A stretch of 63,075 nt of DNA, filler included, from Globobulimina sp. (Eukaryota), in assembly GCA_003354225.1 (NCBI GenBank). It is 36 parts of 36 records of this genome, joined end to end, with 100 filler letters (N's around TTAATTAATTAA, not from the genome) between each part and the next. Parts side by side here need not be neighbours in the genome. Positions count along the whole stretch, not along the records: positions 1 to 1,656 come from PIVH01013530.1; 35 more parts are not named here. The stretch is one strand, 5' to 3'. Every line of letters begins with the position of its first letter. Within the stretch, counting starts at the first letter, position 1. Made by a program: the position numbers and the translations under genes. Of this stretch, positions 1 through 54,970 are shown one piece after another. Below the pieces are notes generated by a model. The model was not told the DNA's origin. It made no database searches and saw only the letters and a program-made list of their open reading frames with translations.

Positions 1-131
1 ACATATATGTGTACATAGAAATTTTGATCATATCTATATATATATGATCACATGACTACATATATGTGTACATAGAAATTTGATCATATCTATATATGAT
101 CACACGACACACACACATGACTACATATATG
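1..131. repeat. Two-and-a-bit copies of a ~57-65-bp direct repeat with internal palindromes
   Basis: ACATATATGTGTACATAGAAATTT(T)GATCATATCTATATA..TGATCACA at 1 and 58, partial third copy CATGACTACATATATGTA at ~116-133. Confidence 0.8.
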
Positions 132-146
132 TATTTTATGACATCA

Positions 147-288
147 ACACTGCGCTGACGCGCAGTGCTGGCGCGCAGCGCCAGCGCAGTGTTGATGTCA
201 TATAAAATATATATTATTTGCATCGTTTTCAGTTTCAAACTATGCAAATAATAAATTTATCATCATTTTCAGTTTCAAACTGTATACA
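147..288 (+). repeat. Left terminal inverted repeat with GC-rich hairpin
   Basis: Reverse complement of 1515-1656 with only a few mismatches; stem 137-157/182-202 encloses GCTGGCGC-GCA-GCGCCAGC. Confidence 0.92.
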
Positions 289-351
289 AACAAAATAATT
301 TGTTTTTGTTTGCAGTTTCAAACTGAAAATATATAAATCAATCACACATTA

Positions 352-1370
352 TTACATACCATATTTATTAATCCGTTTTATTTTTTGTTTTTCAGATTTG
401 CACCATTTGTCCAAATACACTCTCCATTCAGCATCCATATCACATTCAAATTTATCTGGTAATGAATCTTTCTCGTCATCCGACATCTTGTTATACATTG
501 TCAACGTTATCCAAAATGTTTTCTCGAATTGATTCCTGTTTCCTTTCAATTGGAATTCCACCCGATGCCCGTTATAATAATCTGGCTCTCCTTCAATCCC
601 TTTGTTTTTATGGACAATATATGTAAAATATAATCTACCTCCAATTGCATTTGCTGCTGCATCCAATGCCGCTAAATCCAATACTTCAATCTCTTCGAAG
701 TCTAAACGATAAAATAACTGCTTTTTGATATTAATATCTTCGAATAACAATATATCCACACTGCGAATATCTTTTGTTATTTCATATTCATATTGTTTGA
801 ATTGAAGATACTTTTTATGTGTATCTTTCTTATTTGCTATATCTTTGAAAAAAATCGTATCCGTTGATTGCTCAGCACCCGGTTTGAAAGTTGCAGGTAA
901 CGAATATCCAGTATGTGTTATTGTTGTTTTCGGCAAATGTGTGAGTTTCCCCTTTGTATCATTTGATTTTTTCAATATAAACTGCCTCTTTAAATAATAT
1001 TTCGTTTTGTCATCACTGTGCGTAATTTCTTCATCTGTTGGCGCCTTTTGATTTGTCACTATATATTTTACTCCATCCGCTTTCTTTTCACAAATAGCTT
1101 CATCCCACCATTTAACAATTTGATGTACATGGTATAAATTGTGCATTCCGTAATAACCTGTGTATATTATATTAATTTTCAGTTTCAAACTGTATACAAA
1201 TAATTAATACCTGAATTATGCGTAATTTCAAATAATATCATTCTGATAAATGGAATCTTCTCGAAATATTTAATATAACATATTTCAGGGTCGCCAGTTT
1301 CATCCGCCCATACTTTCATAAACATTCGATATGGATTAATTTGTTGTTCGTACACTAATGCAATTGCCAT
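352..1370 (-). CDS. Orphan protein, probably spliced (exons 1370-1211 and 1157-352, ~321 aa)
   Basis: ORFs 1185-1502 and 352-1188 join in frame (..HNSG|YYGM..) by removing a 53-nt GT-AG intron 1158-1210; true start uncertain. Confidence 0.65.
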
Positions 1371-1514
1371 ATTACGCGATTTGATTTGATTTGTCTCGTT
1401 TCCTTCAATTCTCTTTGGCTTCGATAATAGTAAAAAATCTTCGTTTTCTGTATGTATATTTTTTTTATTATTTATTTTCAGTTTGAAACTGAAAATGGAC
1501 AAAAAAATATATTA

Positions 1515-1656
1515 TGTATACAGTTTGAAACTGAAAATGATGAACAATATATTATTTGCATAGTTTGAAACTGAAAACGATGCAAATAATATATATTTTA
1601 TATGACATCAACACTGCGCTGGCGCTGCGCGCCAGCAATGACCGTGAGCGCAGTGT
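1515..1656 (-). repeat. Right terminal inverted repeat with GC-rich hairpin (runs off contig end)
   Basis: Inverted copy of 147-288; ACACTGCGCT...AGCGCAGTGT stem around GCTGGCGCTGCGCGCCAGC. Confidence 0.92.
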
Positions 1657-1756
1657 NNNNNNNNNNNNNNNNNNNNNNNNNNNNNNNNNNNNNNNNNNNN
1701 TTAATTAATTAANNNNNNNNNNNNNNNNNNNNNNNNNNNNNNNNNNNNNNNNNNNN
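1657..1756. other. Artificial contig spacer (first of 35 identical N44-TTAATTAATTAA-N44 linkers)
   Basis: Same 100-bp linker recurs every ~1755 bp; intervening contigs shrink monotonically from 1656 to 1654 bp; TTAATTAATTAA gives stops in all six frames. Confidence 0.99.
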
Positions 1757-3065: not shown

Positions 3066-3411
3066 TCACCATTGTTTCCTTTGCTGTTGAGGTTGACAAT
3101 ATTGCCCAGGTTGAGGTTGCGCATAAACCACACGTTGTTGCTGAGGTTGCCCATACTGTACTTGTTGGGGTTGTCCATACTGAACTTGCTGAGGTTGTCC
3201 ATATTGAACTTGTTGGGGCTGTGCATAAACTACGCGCTGTGATTGTTGTTGGGGTAATACAATCTGTCGCCCATATTGATCATAAGCCACTCTTCGTTGT
3301 TGTTGATGCGGTTGTGCCAATCTTTGCTGTTGCTGCGGTTGCGCATATTGCACTTGCTGTGGTTGTTGCTGCTGTACATAAACAACACGCGGTTGTTGTT
3401 GTTGTTGCGGC
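3066..3411 (-). CDS. Gln/Pro/Tyr-rich repeat protein C-terminus (5' truncated)
   Basis: Open frame of QQVQYGQP / RVVYAQPQ repeats with synonymous variation, followed by an AT-rich 3' region. Confidence 0.75.
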
Positions 3412-9149: not shown

Positions 9150-10340
9150 TCATGTAACTAAATGTTCTTCTTTCCATTTTTTAATTTCTCGATTTAACTC
9201 CCTGCATTCAACAATACCACTCACATCAACATATTGTTGAGTGATAGGATCCGATTTATTTTCTTCAATATACTTTGTAACAAATGATTCATTATAAATG
9301 TATCCAGATTGCATTATTCTTACTGCGCTGTCCATCAACTCATACAAAACCGGATCAACATATTTTATTGGAATATCCTCACTTTTCATATACATCCTAT
9401 TCGCCATAACATTATCAAAATTATCACTTACAACCACATCGGATATTGCATTTAAAATGCTTTCCTGTTCATTGTGATTATCTATTCCCACCATTCGCAA
9501 AGTAACATAATTAATAGACAATAACTCACAGCCTTTAAGTCTTCCGACAACGATATGCTTTCTAAACCGCCTATAACCAACACCACCAAACATATGATCA
9601 TTCACTCGATTAAACCAATAAATAATTGCATAATGACTCCAGTCATTAACACTTATTCTCCCCACTTCAACCTCCACGGCCGTCTGCATTCCAGTTCCTG
9701 TTCCATTTCCACATTCCATTTTATGTGTTTCCCAATCAGATAATTGACATTTTTTATTGCAGTAAAATGCCGATTTGCATTTACTGCATCTCCACACAGC
9801 CTCATCTCTTAAATCACAACCACAGCAACCACACATTAACACCACTGGTTCAGCTGCAATCATATCATCATTCATTGGTAGTTTTTGTTTCTTGAATACA
9901 TTATCATTGTCATCATCCAATTTCCGTTTGAGAGGCACTACATCGTTTGCCTCAATTATTGAGTTACAATCATAACGAGAATGACCTGGTTGCCCACATC
10001 TGAAACAAGTTAAACGTTTATCCAATTTCCGGACAGCATTAATGAAATTACACAATCTGTTTTGAAACTGATTGATTGCGTGATACTGCGCATCTTTTTT
10101 TTTGCCCCGCATTTGTTTTAATATATTTTCTGCAGAAATATGAGGAGATTTACATTTCGATGTCCAGGACTGTATGAATGTGCGTTGTTGTTTGGGAATC
10201 CACTGAATCCATTCTGTGAGTTGGCGTGCTTTAATTTTTTTGAATACATGTATCCATTCATCGCAATTAAACGGTTCCTTCTTTCGTTTTATTTTGAGCC
10301 ATAAATGGTTGCCGATTTTATGTATTCCTTTGATATTCAT
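9150..10340 (-). CDS. CCHC knuckle + MYND finger + SAM-like + U-box protein
   Basis: CFRCGQPGHSRYDC; CxxC..CSKCKSAFYCNKKCQLSDWETHKMEC; WSHYAIIYWF..LKGCELLSI..LRMVGI; IPIKYVDPVLYELMDSAV..SGYIY..SDPITQQ. Confidence 0.88.
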   Translation of the reverse strand: MNIKGIHKIGNHLWLKIKRKKEPFNCDEWIHVFKKIKARQLTEWIQWIPKQQRTFIQSWTSKCKSPHISAENILKQMRGKKKDAQYHAINQFQNRLCNFINAVRKLDKRLTCFRCGQPGHSRYDCNSIIEANDVVPLKRKLDDDNDNVFKKQKLPMNDDMIAAEPVVLMCGCCGCDLRDEAVWRCSKCKSAFYCNKKCQLSDWETHKMECGNGTGTGMQTAVEVEVGRISVNDWSHYAIIYWFNRVNDHMFGGVGYRRFRKHIVVGRLKGCELLSINYVTLRMVGIDNHNEQESILNAISDVVVSDNFDNVMANRMYMKSEDIPIKYVDPVLYELMDSAVRIMQSGYIYNESFVTKYIEENKSDPITQQYVDVSGIVECRELNREIKKWKEEHLVT

Positions 10341-17560: not shown

Positions 17561-19215
17561 CAAACAGAACAAATATCATCAAAAGAAAAATTGTAATAAT
17601 GGCAATACAGATAATTGTATACATTCCACCAATTTTCATTATGAAGAGATTGGTTATCAATGATATGTTGAGCACATTTTTCGCCCAACATAAACGCCAA
17701 CGCCATTGTACCACCATTTGTAGAATATGGCCATATGGATAAATCAATGACACGTAATCCGTCTACACCACGCAATGAGCACTGTCCATCAACGGGATAT
17801 GTATCATCTGAGCCCAAATAGCATGCAACGACGGCCACGACGTCTCAAAAATCCACTCTCTTAAACATATCACAAAAAGCAAAAAGCGATCGCATGAGCA
17901 TCAGATATCAAATATCTGTACATACATTAATTGATGATGAGTACTAATGTTTAATCCCGGAGTAATTTCTCGAACAAATATACTTTTGTTAAATGCAAAT
18001 ATCTTTCTTAATTCTTGAATACCGTGAATGACAAGATCGTAATCTCTGGAATCAGCAAAATAGTTATTATAAACATTTGGAAATATTCTTGCATCCATGC
18101 TCTTTAATGTAATGCTTAAATTTTGTGAATGTACGGATGAATCGATGATTATATTCATTTTATCATTGTTAAGATCAGCATTGAATGCATAGACAGATAT
18201 ATCATTGTAATCATATCCCAATCTATCATACAAATTGGATGATAAAAATATTCGAACACTGCCTGTAATATCAAAATATTCTGTCGTGTTTAAAAAAGTA
18301 AAGACACTGTTGTTTGGATGTGTTGTTACATTGTTTTGATTTACCTGATAAACTAAACCAATATAAGCATGATCTTGGCCATATTTCCCGATCCTATCAT
18401 TCAAATAAACTGGTTTTATACCAAACTCATGTAATTGTTCCCTGCTCCCAATGCCAGATAACATCAACAATTGCGGCGATTGGTATGTTCCAGCGGATAA
18501 AATCAACTCTTTACTGCAATATACTGAATGTAAGCTGCCATTGCCGTCATAATATTCAACGCCAATCGCTTTGTTCTCATCATTGAATAAAATACGTTGA
18601 ACTGTAGTGTTATACCAAACAGTCAAATATCCACTCGGCATTCCGATATTTCGTATATATGATTGTGCCACAGATGAACGATAATAACTTGTATTGAATA
18701 ATCCTTTGCTACCATTTGGATATTTTGCAATATTAATTTCGCCAAAACCAACGCCAAATTGCGAATAAGTACCATGCTGATGATCATTATATGGCAAACC
18801 AAATTGTATTGCTGTGTTAAAAAATGCTTTTAATTTATGTTCAAATTTCTGTGGTGGTCGATTTTTGAGGATTATGGGTCCTTTATCCCCTCTCAAAGTG
18901 CTATTTTCACCCAAATATGTTTCTACTTTTTGATAAAATGGCAAAAAATCTTTAAAGGACCAATTGTCCAAATTTAAAGCTTGTGCAACATAATCGTAAT
19001 CATGAACGCTTACTCGCGTCCAATGTTGGCCATTATGCGATTGACAGCCACCTAAGATTTTAGCACGTGGCAAAGAAGCTGTTCTCTCTAAAAGTGTGTT
19101 GTTATAATTCCAAAACGATGGCATTGATGTAGTGTTCGCCCAGTTTAATTCTTTCACATTCTGAAACCAAGGCCTTTTAATGGAATTAATGGAGTTCCTG
19201 CTATAAAATCACCGA
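17561..19215 (-). CDS. GMC oxidoreductase (choline dehydrogenase-like), partial, apparent frameshift near the catalytic His
   Basis: PRAKILGGCQSHNG, KELILSAGTYQSPQLLMLSGIG, QDH, LRGVDGLRVIDLSIWP; intron ~17862-17925. Confidence 0.88.
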
Positions 19216-24580: not shown

Positions 24581-26235
24581 TTTAAAACAAACAACTCCAA
24601 CTCATGTGCATCAAATGTGAATGTTAATACTTTGCCAACGGATCGCTTGGAGCTTTTAGCATTGTCAACAGACGAATTGAGACAATATTTGGTTGAGAAT
24701 GGATACAACGATGCGTTGCACATAAATGATAAATATTTGTTAACTGAAAGAATAAAAGAAATACAACATAACAACGAAAGGATATTGAGAGGAGAATATG
24801 ATTATTATTTTGTACAAAAGAAGAATGCAGAAGACGAGGATGATGATAGTATTGTATTGAAACCAATTGAAGCGCAAATTGGTGATATAAATTGCATTTT
24901 AATTCCATATCCACAGTCCGTTATTGATGAAATTATTAAGCAACATGGATGTAGTAATACTAATAGACATTCTTATATCTTTTTATCTGAAAAGTGTTAT
25001 AAACAGTTGTGTTTATTTGAGTATCAGAGGAATTATAATGGCGCTGTTTTATTTTTCCACAATGGCTCAGATGAGGAGGGTAAGGTTGACAATGCCGAAG
25101 AATATCCAATTGCCGATGAGAAAGAGCACAAATCAAAGGATGATAAATTAATTACAATACTAAAAGACCGGGGAATGCCCGATTATTTATTATATGAAGT
25201 TATTCAAACTATGCAAAATAACATTAATTCAAACAAAAAGAAAAAAGAAAAGGAAAATGTTAATGTCAATTCACAAGACACAGAGCTTGAATTTTTAGAT
25301 GGAGAGATACCGCGATGTTCATATCATAAGTTAGTTAAAGCAGATTATGAGATTCCTTTTTATATTTATCAAGATACGAAAAGATGCGAATTATTAAAAA
25401 CATCAAAGTCATTAATAAATATATTGGAATATCATCGCAAAAAAGATGATCAAGAATCGAAATCCAATGAAAATATTAAAGTGTTACAAAATATTTTACA
25501 AAAAATGATTGCTGATAACAAAGATATGATGAATCCATCCAAGTGGTTAAAAAGCACGCAAAGTATACTACGCTTTTTAGAAATGCACAATGAAATGGAA
25601 TTATATGAAGTGATTGAAAATAAATATGTGACCACTCTCAATAATTATATTCATCCCCATTATAGGGCCGAATCACACGCCAGAAATACTGACGACAAAA
25701 TCAAAGAAAATAGTGTCGAATACAAAAAATTAATGCAAATACGAGAAAGAATCTGGCGAAATTGCTGTGTCTCGCTAGAAATACCATTGATAACCGAACC
25801 ATATTTAAGCAGACGGATGATTGCAATCTGTGACCATACAAATACATTGCCAGCGGAAACCGTATTTATTCAGTTGCGCGCAATCAATTCATCACCGAAA
25901 CATTGTTATGTTTGTTCACAGCAAATCGTGCCTGGAGCCGGGAGGTGTAATAATGGCAAATGTTGTGCGTTTGTCCCGAGATATAGTTCGCCCAAACAGC
26001 ACACAAAAATAATTATGATGCAATCAGATGCGTTAAGTCCGCTATGTTTGAAATCATATAAGACTGTGTACAGCCAGAAATTAGCAAAATTATATCCAAA
26101 TCAAAATATATTGATATTCTCAGCTTCAATCATCAATTCATTATCAAAAACATCCTCATCAAACAATGATGACACATCATATTTAAATGAATATGGGAGA
26201 TGCAAATTGTTTGATTGTATTATTGTGCCACAATT
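24581..26235 (+). CDS. Divergent cellular RNA-dependent RNA polymerase (RDR/QDE-1)-like protein, catalytic motif not seen (partial)
   Basis: LITILKDRGMPD, RRMIAICDHTNTLPAETVFIQ, KIIMMQSDALSP..KTVYSQKL..NILIFSA occur in RDR order; SAP-like helix pair at N-terminus. Confidence 0.6.
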
Positions 26236-28090: not shown

Positions 28091-28414
28091 GGTTGCCAGA
28101 TTGGTAATTTGTTCTTTTGTGAAAATATCATCAAAATTGTTCATGCCACCTTCGGTGCCAATCGCGATGATTTTTTCCAGCCTTTTCTGACCCAGTTTAA
28201 GGGTATTTTTAGGTTCCAGGTTTTTGCCGGTTGCGCCTTTGCGCAATACACCGTGACACCCAGCACAACGTTGAAAATACAAAGCTTTCGTATCATCAAA
28301 GGTTTCCTGTGCCATAGTCGGGCTTTTTGCCTCTTCTGCGACAGCAGTACCTAGAGATAACGCTGTACTGAGAGCCAGCGCAGTTGCGAAACTCGTCAGC
28401 ATTAGTTTTTTCAT
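28091..28414 (-). CDS. nirS: Bacterial cytochrome cd1 nitrite reductase, signal peptide + haem c domain (3' truncated)
   Basis: YFQRCAGCHGVLRKGATGK NirS signature, GTEGGMNNF, Sec signal peptide, AGAGGA ribosome-binding site upstream. Confidence 0.88.
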
Positions 28415-35172: not shown

Positions 35173-36174
35173 ATGCATAAAGGTCATACAGGAAGGACAC
35201 ATAAAATGGATACGCATAATTTGTTAGTTCCAATGCCGACAATGCAGACAATGACAGCACCACAATATAAAGAATGTAAATCTTTATATCTGCGAAATAT
35301 GAGAAATATGAGAAATGATAATAGGAATAATAATAATTGGGGTCAAAATGCATTTACATTTAGCGATATGAGTAAACCATTATTTTCAGGACCTGCCCGT
35401 GTACGGCAAAGAGCAGCATGGTTTCCATCCGGATCCTCCCGATTGTATGGGAATCGATTGCCGGAGAGAAGAAGATCAAGATTGGATTTGTATACTTATG
35501 ATAATAATAATAATTATAATAATAATGGTAGTGATGAAAGAATAAAGCTACGGAGATTACCCAAATCCAAATCCAAATCGGATGTAGACACAGATAGTTC
35601 TTCAGAGAGTGAGTATGTGGACACCGATGAGAGTGAGTCTGATTTTGTTAACAATGCGATTGATATTTGTAAGTGGGACAGTAATGACATTTATGAATGG
35701 ATTGTATCCATTGATAAGGAGAGATTTGGCAAATATAAAGATTTAAAAAAGACATTGTTGGATGAAGAATTGAGCGGTAATGATTTAATTGGTATTACGG
35801 AACAAAACTTAAAGGAATTTGGGATTACAAGATTCTCAGATAAGAAATTATTATTTAATAAGATACAAAGCATATTACCGAAAGATGTAAAGAATAATTC
35901 GAAGTCAAGAAAGAGTGAAAAGAAAGAGATTGAAGATGACGACATTCCGGATCAATTTTTAGATCCCATTAGCTATGAAATAATGGAAGATCCAGTGTTG
36001 TGCAGTAAGTCTGGCTATACGTACGAAAGGAAAATAATTGAACATTGGATAGAAACAAATGGCGCAGATCCTATGACCAGACAAAAAATTAAAAAAAAAC
36101 ATTTAACTTCAAATCGTGGATTAAAAGAATTAATTCAAGAATGGAAAAAAGCAAATAAAATAAAAGACAAATAA
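35173..36174 (+). CDS. SAM + U-box protein (putative E3 ligase)
   Basis: WDSNDIYEWI..EELSGNDLIGITEQNLKEFGI; IPDQFLDPISYEIMEDPVL..SGYTYERKIIEHWI..DPMTRQ. Confidence 0.92.
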   Translation: MHKGHTGRTHKMDTHNLLVPMPTMQTMTAPQYKECKSLYLRNMRNMRNDNRNNNNWGQNAFTFSDMSKPLFSGPARVRQRAAWFPSGSSRLYGNRLPERRRSRLDLYTYDNNNNYNNNGSDERIKLRRLPKSKSKSDVDTDSSSESEYVDTDESESDFVNNAIDICKWDSNDIYEWIVSIDKERFGKYKDLKKTLLDEELSGNDLIGITEQNLKEFGITRFSDKKLLFNKIQSILPKDVKNNSKSRKSEKKEIEDDDIPDQFLDPISYEIMEDPVLCSKSGYTYERKIIEHWIETNGADPMTRQKIKKKHLTSNRGLKELIQEWKKANKIKDK

Positions 36175-42613: not shown

Positions 42614-43781
42614 TTATTTATTATCTTGGATAATCATTTGAGCGCCCTTTTCCCCAATCATATAACACGGTGCTTGCGTATTGCCCGATGTTAAAGTCGG
42701 CATAATTGAGGCATCACAAACACGTAAATTATTAAAACCACGAACTTTTAATCTTTCATCACAAACAGCCATTTCATCGCGATTAATGTTGCCCATTTTA
42801 CACGTTCCAACTGGATGATAAACAGTCAATGCATATATTTGTAATCTTTTTAATACTGCATCTCGATCCCAATAATGTTTATCATCATCCTCATTTCCTA
42901 ACAATTTGCATCCTAAATCAGCATAAACATTATCATTTAAAATGTCTCGCAACAACAATATGCCATCAACATACATTTCTTTATCATATTCAGTTTGTAA
43001 ATATTCCATATTAATGATTGGATATTCCAATGCTTTATTATTCCTCAAAGTGACTGAACCCATACTCGAATTATGCAAAGTACAGACTAAACCAATCAAA
43101 CTGTGTAAATCTTCATTTGTTTTTGCTTCACCAAATATATCCAAATTATCCACAAGATGATATTTATATCGTTTCTTACTATTTTTTTCATCAGCTGCAG
43201 GACCAACAATTATTTGCAAATCATTCGTTTTTATTCCCATTTTCTTTCCGGTTTCTGATTTACAAAATAACTGAACATCTGCACATATGGTCGTTAACCA
43301 TCCAGTTCCATTTAAAAAATATTCAAACAGAGTTTTAAATTTTTTGCCTTCGTTTTCATCCAATAATGGCACACTCTCTGGCACTCTTAAATAGTTTTTA
43401 TGTAACAATACGTGAAAAAAACACAATTAAACAACAAACCTTAACCGCATGGTGCACATCATATGATCCTGTAAATTTTTACCGACACCAGGAACATCAG
43501 CAACGCATTGAATGTTTTTATCTTTTAACTCATTTTGTGGCCCAATGCCAGACAGTAATAAAATGTGAGGACTGCCAATAGAACCGGCACACACAATGAC
43601 CTCTGCATTACTTTTAATTACTTTTTTATTATTCTCATCCATTTTATATATGAATTCAACCCCGTCGGCTTTCAATTTGTTATCCTCTCCATCCACAGTC
43701 AATATTTTACAAACCTGTGCGTACGGCAATATATCGATATTATATTCACTTTTTTTAGAATAGCCGTTGAATTTAAATAAA
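42614..43781 (-). CDS. GMC oxidoreductase C-terminal half
   Basis: [60 protein letters not shown]; intron ~43390-43439. Confidence 0.93.
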
Positions 43782-43881: not shown

Positions 43882-45535
43882 ACGAATTTTATCCAAACGA
43901 TTACAAGCATTCTGTGTTGAAAATAACATATTCAACAATGATTAACAGAACGATTAATGCAAGAATTAGTCGCTACCGCCAGATCTGATATTATTGATGA
44001 TATATATTTTGATAGAAACGATAAAGAGCATAAGTTCAGAGTGCGAGAAAACAGATTTGATAGATACAAATTCTGGGCACCAAAAACCGAATGCGGTATT
44101 ATATATCGAGATAACTTAGATATAACAAGATTGAATGACTTTATCCCTATTACACAATGTAGAGAATCAAATATTGCGATTTGCGGTATCTTAATACACA
44201 CCAAACATAAACCAATTGCTATATACTCATACTACAGACCCCCGAGATACGGAGATGGATCACAACTATTCCAATTTAAATATGAAGGAGAAAAAGTAAT
44301 ACTTGGAGGTGATCTAAATTTGCATCATGAAAACTGGGGAAGCAATCATCATAATAAGTCGTCAATCAAATTTACCGATTTATTATCCCAATCAGAATTC
44401 CAATGCATAAATACAAACTCACCGACCCGGTGCGATCCGACTAATCCCACTCATGAATCAAATATATACATTTCAATGGTATCAAACAATACAAAAACAA
44501 CCAATTGGCAATCTATAAATCACAGAAATAAAAAATTGTCAGATCACTATCTAATTAAATTTGATGTGGAGCTTGAACCGCAATTTGGCTTTAATTTCAA
44601 TCGAAAAGTTTGGAATTTAAACTCCAAAAAATGGAAAGAATACACAAAACAGTTACAAAAAAGCACAGTGAAACTGCAGGAATTCGTCAACCATAATAAA
44701 AAAGTACTAAATAAAAACCCGAATAATCATAAACTACATAGAAAAATCCTTAATGAATTAACAGGAAACATCTCCCAATCAATAATAAATACTGCAAACA
44801 GTACCATCGGCAAAAAATCATATTATAATGGATATAAACCATGGTGGAATAATAAAATAAGTAAATTACAAAAGAAAGCCCGTAAATGGGAAAATAAGAA
44901 AAATAAATTTAGAAATAAAATAAAAAATGCACCAAATAACTCAACACGAGAAAATATATTCAAATATGAATTTGAAAAAGCAAATAAAAATTATAAACGA
45001 TTACGAAACCAGAAACTTAGAGAGATTAAAAAAGCAAAATTAGCATATTACAAAAAGCTAAATCACCAAATCCAACACGCTAAATCTCACTCGCGTATAT
45101 TTTACAGAGCATTAAAACAGAAAAATTACAGAAATGCCAACATAATCCCTCCAATAATAAAAAATGATCAATTAGAAACTACAAATGACCCCATTGAACA
45201 AGCAACATTAATCCATCAACATATATGTAATCCACCTAAACCAACATTTTCCCCACAACACATTAACTACCATCATACAGTTAACCACAATGCTAATGCC
45301 ATAATCAATGACATAAATTCCAATCATCCAAACCTTACCCGAAACCCCAATGATTTGCTGAATTCTATAATCCAATTCTATGAAGTCCGGAACTGTGCGG
45401 CAGAGCTGGACACAGACAAAGCAATTGGCACTGACGACATCCATAATAAAATGTTAATATTTGGAAAGGCTCCGTTATTTAGGATCCTTACCCAACTTTT
45501 TAATCTTTGTTTGAAATACCATGTATTTCCAAAAC
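43882..45535 (+). mobile_element. Non-LTR retrotransposon ORF2 (APE endonuclease to start of RT), partial
   Basis: YSYYRPP, ILGGDLNLHH..WGS, SPTR, LSDHYLI, KPWWN, KAIGTDDIHNKML..LFNLCL..VFP in one open frame. Confidence 0.93.
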
Positions 45536-54897: not shown

Positions 54898-54970
54898 GGG
54901 GTACTGGCGCAATCGGAAGCGCGTAACGTTCGCAACGTTAAGGCACCGGGATCGAAACCCGGGTACTCCA
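54898..54970 (+). tRNA. tRNA-Ala(CGC), eukaryotic type
   Basis: GGGGTAC/GTACTCC acceptor stem with G3:U70, GCGC D-stem, TAACG-TTCGCAA-CGTTA anticodon arm, CCGGG-ATCGAAA-CCCGG T-arm, no encoded CCA. Confidence 0.93.

Follow-up and report, generated by a model that had tools for sequence, protein, structure and literature searches.

The closest described parallels to the locus reported here appear to lie among eukaryotic DNA transposons with long ends. Tc1-like elements of the inverted repeat/direct repeat (IR/DR) type, such as Minos and Sleeping Beauty, have long inverted repeats with several binding repeats and one gene of ~340 aa with a short intron. The ends of En/Spm, hAT, and Mutator elements, too, typically contain binding sites in subterminal arrays. 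To our knowledge, the major groups of eukaryotic DNA transposons are all defined by their enzyme, and new groups are rare. The description of Replitrons dates only from 2023 (PMC10288648). Here we examine a short contig of Globobulimina sp. (PIVH01013530.1, assembly GCA_003354225.1) in which a single spliced gene, without a counterpart in protein family libraries, lies between two long inverted arms, each made of a GC-rich palindrome and an ordered array of smaller palindromic sites. We tentatively interpret it as an unclassified, transposon-like inverted-repeat element.

The contig is the first in a 63,075-nt window, by which we mean the whole stretch of DNA that was analyzed. The window consists of 36 unrelated contigs of 1654–1656 bp each, in descending size order, joined by 100-nt artificial linkers (N44-TTAATTAATTAA-N44), so that features crossing a linker are meaningless. 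The element under study lies in contig 1 (window positions 1–1656), which is a complete contig, and the sequence to the right of position 1656 is unrelated to it. All coordinates refer to the window, and those of the individual features are collected in Table 1.

Inverted repeats and terminal palindromes

How is the contig organized? A repeat scan places the two arms at 147–301 and 1502–1656 (155 nt, 92% complementary), and blastn aligns 147–336 with 1656–1468 (191 aligned columns, 90.05% identity, E = 4e-69). The inverted copies that an initial annotation had placed at 147–288 and 1515–1656 are thus real, and longer than it supposed. Among the 36 contigs, an inverted repeat longer than 27 nt is present in contig 1 alone. 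Each arm measures ~200 nt and is bipartite: a GC-rich palindrome stands at the terminus, and three units of 40–43 nt follow as an array. The arms differ at ~10% of positions, indels included, and these differences are concentrated in a 12-nt asymmetric part of the hairpin interior; the 90% identity extends to the spacers between motifs. Divergence of this kind speaks against a simple fold-back artefact, as the initial annotation had already argued. The gene occupies the space between the arms, with its stop codon 16 nt from the left arm and its ATG 98 nt from the right one, and the locus is therefore a compact unit rather than two chance repeats. The right edge of this unit lies beyond the end of the contig: applying the mirror rule x <-> 1803-x predicts it near 1670, which gives a unit at 133–1670 of ~1538 bp.

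The left boundary of the unit is sharp. Outside it lies an AT-rich tandem repeat whose third unit stops after 10 nt. Positions 114–132 are identical to 49–67 (19 nt) in the previous unit, and divergence is complete from 133, leaving 4 nt between this point and the perfect stem of the palindrome. A boundary that interrupts a satellite in this way resembles an insertion, and it is the one direct sign of insertion at this locus. None of the other 35 contigs showed the 57/65-nt repeat; within 1–132, palindromes of the form TGATCATAT...ATATGATCA occur inside it, and its unit 2 has a (CA)n insertion. Because 132 nt of tandem repeat lie outside the left palindrome, the palindrome is the edge of a unit and not the end of a DNA molecule. 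The hairpin-capped physical ends and the linear mini-replicon that had been proposed are hard to reconcile with this unrelated sequence on the same contig. Contig 1 ends without overlap and gives no assembly sign of circularity.

The left palindrome encloses an asymmetric 24-nt interior made of 13-nt GC repeats. An inner hairpin, GCTGGCGC-GCA-GCGCCAGC at 168–186, extends into the 3' half of the outer stem and so competes with it. When folded as single-stranded DNA, positions 120–220 reach -36.1 kcal/mol (z = -8.43), a value that none of 200 shuffles equaled. For the left palindrome, a branched two-arm conformer (-30.3 kcal/mol) lies within 2 kcal/mol of the minimum (-32.3 kcal/mol), and of the 267 suboptimal structures that fall within 5 kcal/mol, 64 carry at least two hairpins. 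The right hairpin is only half seen, since the contig ends at 1656, within the palindrome. A GC-rich fold-back in each arm, as first annotated, accordingly holds in full for the left side, with its perfect 21-bp stem and competing inner hairpin, and is half present on the right. An 18-mer of the stem does not occur in the other 35 contigs, and the exact 21-nt stem had no match in the collection of genome contigs searched. A search of contig 1 against Rfam at E up to 1 gave only sub-threshold matches of the palindromes to generic miRNA hairpins (best 37 bits, against a gathering threshold of 67). A 10-nt identity between the hairpin interior and the start of the Tc1 inverted repeat is absent from the right arm, and we take it as chance.

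An array of motifs and its intronic copy

In each arm, the three units follow one another in mirrored order (outer, middle, inner), and each is centered on a 13-nt palindrome, CAGTTTSAAACTG. Spacings between motif cores are 40, 43, 42, and 40 nt. These distances are close to four helical turns, which would place the sites on the same face of the helix. The motif yields 12 strand hits, corresponding to seven sites, where 0.26 are expected; none of 100 shuffles matches this number. All hits fall within 227–1576, and no copy was found in the other 35 contigs of the 63-kb window. A literature search with the motif strings returned one unrelated primer match.

The seventh copy of CAGTTTSAAACTG lies inside the intron of the gene, with its core at 1180–1192. 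Units align outer with outer, middle with middle, and inner with inner across both arms, and the intron copy is most like the middle unit: 1175–1198 in the intron and 1515–1538 in the arm are 100% identical over 24 nt. This recurrence of the arm motif within the gene is a further sign, beside a gene that fills the interarm space, that the locus is a compact unit.

Table 1. Position, strand, and description of the features of contig 1 and of the adjoining linker
Feature	Position	Strand	Description
Left flank	1..132	.	AT-rich tandem repeat with a 57/65-nt period, ~2.15 units; unit starts 1, 58, 123
Left inverted-repeat arm	133..336	+	4 terminal nt, 66-nt palindrome, and three repeat units; outer boundary at 133 inferred
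Left GC-rich palindrome	137..202	.	Axis 169.5; perfect 21-bp stem 137–157 / 182–202; inner hairpin 168–186
Motif core, left outer unit	230..242	.	CAGTTTCAAACTA
Motif core, left middle unit	270..282	.	CAGTTTCAAACTG
Motif core, left inner unit	313..325	.	Within an extended palindrome ending in CAGTTTCAAACTGAAAAT
Exon 2	1157..355, stop codon 354..352	-	Supported by homology to P0003–P0007
Intron	1158..1210	-	53 nt, GT..AG, phase 1; holds the seventh motif copy
Exon 1	1211..1370, ATG 1370..1368	-	Aligns with relatives directly upstream of the exon 2 match
TATA-like tract, A/T only	1450..1476	-	80–105 nt upstream of the ATG, beside the inner motif; read from sequence
Right inverted-repeat arm	1468..1656	-	Cut by contig end; motif cores 1479–1491, 1521–1533, 1561–1573
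Right palindrome	1601..1656	.	Axis 1633.5; last 10 stem nt and ~4 terminal nt missing
Artificial linker	1657..1756	.	Outside the element, marks the end of contig 1; 34 further linkers, one per ~1755 nt

A spliced gene and its rare protein family

The coding sequence runs on the minus strand (1370..1211 joined to 1157..355) and comprises 963 nt, or 321 codons, without an internal stop. The splice is supported by homology, because exon 2 matches relatives over nearly its full length and exon 1 matches one of them, P0004, just upstream of that match (E = 3e-6 for residues 11–98, E = 6e-4 for residues 45–98 alone); in a MAFFT alignment, exon 1 is colinear in P0003–P0005. The intron is flanked by CAG|GT at both sides. 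On the sense strand, an AATAAA (369..364) closely precedes the stop codon, and the A/T-only tract upstream of the ATG may be a promoter. With a GC content of 32.4%, a third-position GC content (GC3) of 29.6%, and a codon use value of -0.83, the gene is within the range of 22 other open reading frames (ORFs) of the window, whose codon use values extend from -1.15 to -0.79. Upstream of the ATG, a further 47 codons are free of stops; we rejected a longer frame, as the 44 upstream residues do not resemble the relatives significantly (E = 0.8).

What does the gene encode? An exhaustive phmmer search of 1.84 billion representative proteins found five distant relatives, with E values from 3.5e-31 to 1.6e-4: P0003 (782 aa, E = 3.5e-31, domain at 449–707), which is a EukProt entry; P0004 (1250 aa, E = 1.2e-13, domain at 495–736); P0005 (377 aa, E = 1.3e-9), from a European Nucleotide Archive (ENA) contig of only 1333 bp; and the fragments P0006 (223 aa, E = 3e-6) and P0007 (122 aa, E = 1.6e-4). 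Judged by sequence similarity, the encoded protein belongs to a real but rare family. The single spliced gene of ~321 aa predicted in the initial annotation is thus confirmed in its length and its one intron, but it is not a strict orphan. Since P0005 has 377 aa on a contig of 1333 bp, it too is likely to be a short stand-alone gene. Positions conserved in the family include two N-terminal Tyr, one His, D-x-K-G, LKPGAxQS, N..D, LDLxAL, and GRN. Outside the shared domain, P0003 has basic clusters that look like nuclear localization signals ahead of the domain. P0004 has several stretches that look like hydrophobic helices, along with a long, acidic tract of Asp and Ser (~860–1000, ~1040–1100), and may be a fused gene model.

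Libraries of protein families and structures give little purchase on this family. With E allowed up to 1, neither exon matches a Pfam family, and the shared region of the five relatives has no Pfam domain; at E up to 10, all seven family sequences show only scattered sub-threshold, single-member matches outside the shared domain. PHROGs and NCBIfam return 0 families for seven of seven sequences, and searches of PDB sequences with P0001, a profile of the family alignment, P0003, and P0004 find nothing below E = 0.07. These results agree with the initial annotation, which had recognized no motif in the protein, and they include no match of the protein to a known transposon family in Pfam, PHROGs, or NCBIfam. 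A word-indexed search of 5.8 billion proteins gave 0 matches among 339 candidates with exon 2 as query, P0005 only with the family alignment, and P0003 itself only with P0003 residues 380–720. No match was obtained by tblastn against phage and plasmid records. In the ESM Atlas, the best score for P0001 was 0.87, a low recognition of beta-trefoil or lectin-like clusters, and P0005 had no usable match; the Atlas contains a model for neither protein. A scan of genome contigs for related loci with an alignment of P0005 and P0006 produced 103 pattern matches, 0 of them confirmed. The structure prediction that the initial annotation had called for yielded no usable fold: AlphaFold2, run on a shallow alignment of seven rows, gave predicted local distance difference test (pLDDT) values of 39.0 for P0001 and 40.0 for P0005.

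No DDE, HUH, tyrosine-recombinase, or serine-recombinase signature was detected in the protein. The string YHVHQIV raised an HUH nuclease as a candidate, which we rejected: only the first His is conserved, the second His of HVH being S, E, or I in three of five members, and the family alignment has no conserved YxxK. A PD-(D/E)xK or His-Me nuclease, read from D..DxK and H..N..D, was also set aside as a matter of pattern-gazing, two of the residues being absent from P0005.

Comparison with described elements

How does the locus compare with known systems? By analogy, its nearest counterpart would be the end of an IR/DR transposon to which a palindrome of parvovirus style had been added. The IR/DR members of Tc1/mariner (Minos, Sleeping Beauty, Paris, and the S element) are alike in size (~1.5–1.8 kb), in inverted repeats of ~200–250 nt with internal repeats, and in a single, interior-filling gene of ~320–340 aa that sometimes has one short intron. 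The long inverted repeats with binding sites that mark Tc1/mariner ends have their counterpart here in arms of ~190–200 nt with three ordered units, a likeness of architecture only. The contig differs in that Pfam detects neither the paired helix-turn-helix (HTH) nor the DD(34-41)E/D transposase domain, there are three putative sites per arm rather than two, the sites are 13-nt palindromes, and a 66-nt GC-rich palindrome stands at the end. Arms of tandem subrepeats, ~200 nt, also recall Foldback and Mutator-like ends; Foldback arms, however, are much longer and variable, and the transposases of Mutator-like elements (MULEs) exceed 700 aa and have a MULE/SWIM domain, which is absent here. The 53-nt intron, essentially one palindromic arm unit with CAG|GT at both sides, is reminiscent of transposon-derived introns of the introner type, but it is a single case, the repeated CAG|GT is the general splice consensus, and no such intron family was seen in the window.

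Parvovirus and densovirus inverted terminal repeats, for example those of adeno-associated virus (AAV), share with this locus the same palindrome inverted at both ends, an asymmetric interior, and repeated motifs beside the hairpin, and the left palindrome can indeed fold into branched hairpins at the energies given above. Parvovirus genomes differ in size (4–6 kb, against ~1.5 kb for the element) and have their palindromes at the physical ends of a linear molecule, whereas the left palindrome here has 132 nt outside it; the intron and host-like codon use of the element are further differences. No parvovirus-like NS1/Rep (HUH, Tyr, SF3 helicase) or capsid gene was matched by the element protein in Pfam or PHROGs. 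The analogy with parvoviruses and densoviruses drawn at first therefore extends to the shape of the DNA alone, in a family that lacks a helicase and conserves neither an HUH nor a Tyr motif, and nothing points toward the virus segment that had been suggested with it. An integrated copy of a parvovirus-like replicon with flanking sequence is conceivable. A linear plasmid with hairpin telomeres, which would have covalently closed hairpin ends and a telomere resolvase, does not fit: the DNA beyond the left palindrome is no mirror image of the element, and there is no resolvase- or integrase-type match.

Plasmids of the Ddp2 family in Dictyostelium resemble the element in an AT-rich, apparently amoeba-type host, one long gene with a long inverted repeat, and nuclear location. 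They differ in being circles of ~5–6 kb with a Rep of ~900 aa that has its own Pfam family, and there is no Pfam match here at E up to 10. Literature searches on Dictyostelium plasmids and transposons and on superfamilies with palindromic terminal inverted repeats (TIRs) returned nothing that matches the element. Transposons of the HUH class (Replitrons, Helitrons, IS200/IS605) have end hairpins or palindromes that their own small protein is thought to recognize (PMC10288648), and Replitrons, like the element, have no helicase. In Replitrons the repeats at the termini are short and direct, and the protein has both an HUQ/HUH and a GYxxK motif (PMC10288648). In contrast, the ends described here are inverted copies, and neither HUH/HUQ nor Tyr motifs are conserved in the family alignment.

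Mobile element, host gene, or replicon?

With a probability of roughly 0.42, we favor an unclassified, transposon-like inverted-repeat element that is inserted in a satellite and whose protein would bind the repeated sites. Its architecture would be that of a eukaryotic TIR DNA transposon, outside all classified families and integrated in a chromosome; the generic mark of such transposons, inverted repeats that bound the element's own gene, is present. Under this reading, the terminal GC-rich palindrome would extrude as a simple or branched hairpin or as a cruciform, and the inner edge of the right arm would serve the gene as its promoter region. The encoded protein, probably as a dimer, would recognize the repeated palindromic sites, pair the two ends of the element, and carry out cleavage or recombination in or close to the terminal palindromes. 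The seventh site in the intron may act as an operator through which the protein damps its own expression. The unclassified small mobile element of the initial annotation is retained in this form, on the strength of the compact unit, the intronic motif copy, the sharp boundary, and the lack of any known transposase, Rep, or virus family.

Several observations weigh against it. A single copy is seen, cut at its right end, with no target-site duplication, second insertion site, or empty site, and the other 35 contigs contain no motif, hairpin stem, or paralogue. Given that there is no recombinase signature and that the fold cannot be predicted, "transposase" would be a purely inferred name for the protein. 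P0003 and P0004 carry the domain within much larger proteins, so it could be an ordinary nuclear protein module, and further exons of the gene might lie upstream, outside the contig. The 10% difference between the arms implies that this copy may be old or inactive. We know of no classical cut-and-paste element with sequence-encoded terminal palindromes.

A number of these points recur if the gene is taken as an ordinary, non-mobile host gene, or the 3' part of a larger one, with an inverted local duplication as its flanks. A host factor would then bind the palindromic sites, which would lie in the promoter (or in an upstream intron), the intron, and the 3' flank, and the palindromes would be structural or regulatory features rather than ends. 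Codon use and GC content like those of other ORFs in the window would fit, as would the open frame upstream of the ATG, the absence of a second copy in the window and of any transposase-like signature, and the 390–445 residues ahead of the domain in P0003 and P0004. We nevertheless consider this somewhat unlikely. It leaves a 190-nt inverted copy of the upstream region, 16 nt past the stop codon, without a known role in expression, and it has to accommodate spacers between motifs that are also 90% identical across arms and an outer boundary that cleanly interrupts a tandem repeat. Moreover, the residues upstream of the ATG are not significantly like those of relatives, and P0005, which fits on its 1333-bp contig, is also a short stand-alone gene. 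The arms themselves might be questioned, since the assembly is very fragmented (1.65-kb contigs) and the contig ends inside a palindrome, as in a fold-back chimera or a mis-join. Such an assembly or amplification artefact is extremely improbable: a fold-back chimera would give identical arms, yet these diverge by ~10%, with indels and with changes clustered in the hairpin interior, around an intact gene supported by homology, and their motif array is ordered and mirrored.

A plasmid- or virus-like extrachromosomal replicon, either a circle of ~1.7–1.8 kb closed by the 57-nt repeats or a linear molecule with tandem repeats outside its palindromes, would make the hairpin-plus-iteron modules origins and the protein an initiator or partition factor. 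Inverted repeats with a single gene also fit nuclear plasmids of social amoebae of the Ddp2 type, the branched hairpin conformers are energetically competitive, and both ends of the contig fall in repeats, a frequent pattern for small molecules present in high copy number. A GC-rich hairpin beside iterated sites is the classic origin layout of rolling-circle plasmids, geminiviruses, nanoviruses, and parvoviruses. The pMV158 origin shows this layout, a hairpin beside iterated binding sites (PMC10288648). Against this, neither the protein nor its five relatives match a Rep, HUH, helicase, polymerase, capsid, or Dictyostelium REP family, and HUH is not conserved among them; there is no overlap between the contig ends, DNA continues outside the left palindrome, and the tandem repeat outside it is interrupted like a target. 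With a spliceosomal-type intron and host-like codon use in addition, we regard a replicon as quite unlikely. A further proposal, which would go beyond a transposon of familiar kind, is an undescribed class of eukaryotic mobile elements or mini-replicons of ~1.5 kb, with branched-hairpin ends, triple palindromic iterons, an intronic operator, and a new DNA-end-processing enzyme without detectable relation to the DDE, HUH, tyrosine, and serine recombinases; this we hold to be unlikely.

The other contigs of the window

The other 35 contigs are AT-rich (26–48% GC), gene-dense, and eukaryote-like, with which a protist origin is plausibly compatible. They encode RCC1-repeat, U-box/MYND/SAM, leucine-rich repeat (LRR), ion-channel, and anoctamin proteins, as well as poly-Asn tracts, GMC-oxidoreductase fragments, a weak match to RNA-dependent RNA polymerase (RdRP), and a non-LTR retrotransposon endonuclease. 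No telomere repeats and no rRNA were found in the window, and a tRNA-Ala (CGC) at 54898–54970 (+), with 55.7 bits, is the sole RNA gene found.

The retrotransposon sequence is an ORF at 43957–45534 (+) that runs off its contig and has an Exo_endo_phos_2 (endonuclease-reverse-transcriptase) domain (E = 3.3e-13), a fragment of a non-LTR element. The GMC-oxidoreductase pieces, an N-terminal domain at 17901–19157 (-) and a C-terminal domain at 42614–43426 (-), lie on separate contigs (E = 1e-21 and 2e-32, respectively) and may be halves of one gene or paralogues. U-box proteins have unusual partners, with zf-CCHC, MYND, and U-box together at 9150–10340 (-) and SAM with U-box at 35173–36174 (+). 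A 539-aa open frame at 24617–26233 (+) has a sub-threshold match to eukaryotic RdRP (20.3 bits, cut-off 23.8). At the end of contig 2, positions 3084–3404 show a coding-type repeat with a period of 24 nt (TTGYTGRGGTTG...CATA...); its minus strand probably encodes a low-complexity protein region rich in Gln, Pro, and Tyr. A contig-edge ORF at 28091–28414 (-) contains a cbb3-type cytochrome c domain (E = 8.7e-9); as a bacterial-type domain in a eukaryote-like set, it may represent contamination, an organelle gene, or a transferred gene.

Significance

Overall, the locus is a real, well-formed, and unusual unit. It is probably an inverted-repeat mobile element of a new variety, whose protein is uncharacterized. 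It combines a transposon body plan with ends resembling hairpin-primed replicon origins and a protein that no library recognizes. At present it is a lead and not a discovery. If it proved not to be mobile, it would offer a clean case of one palindromic operator common to a promoter, an intron, and a 3' flank. If it is mobile, it would represent either a new enzyme family for mobile elements or a link between cut-and-paste and hairpin-based mechanisms, and its small size would make it attractive as a minimal vector.

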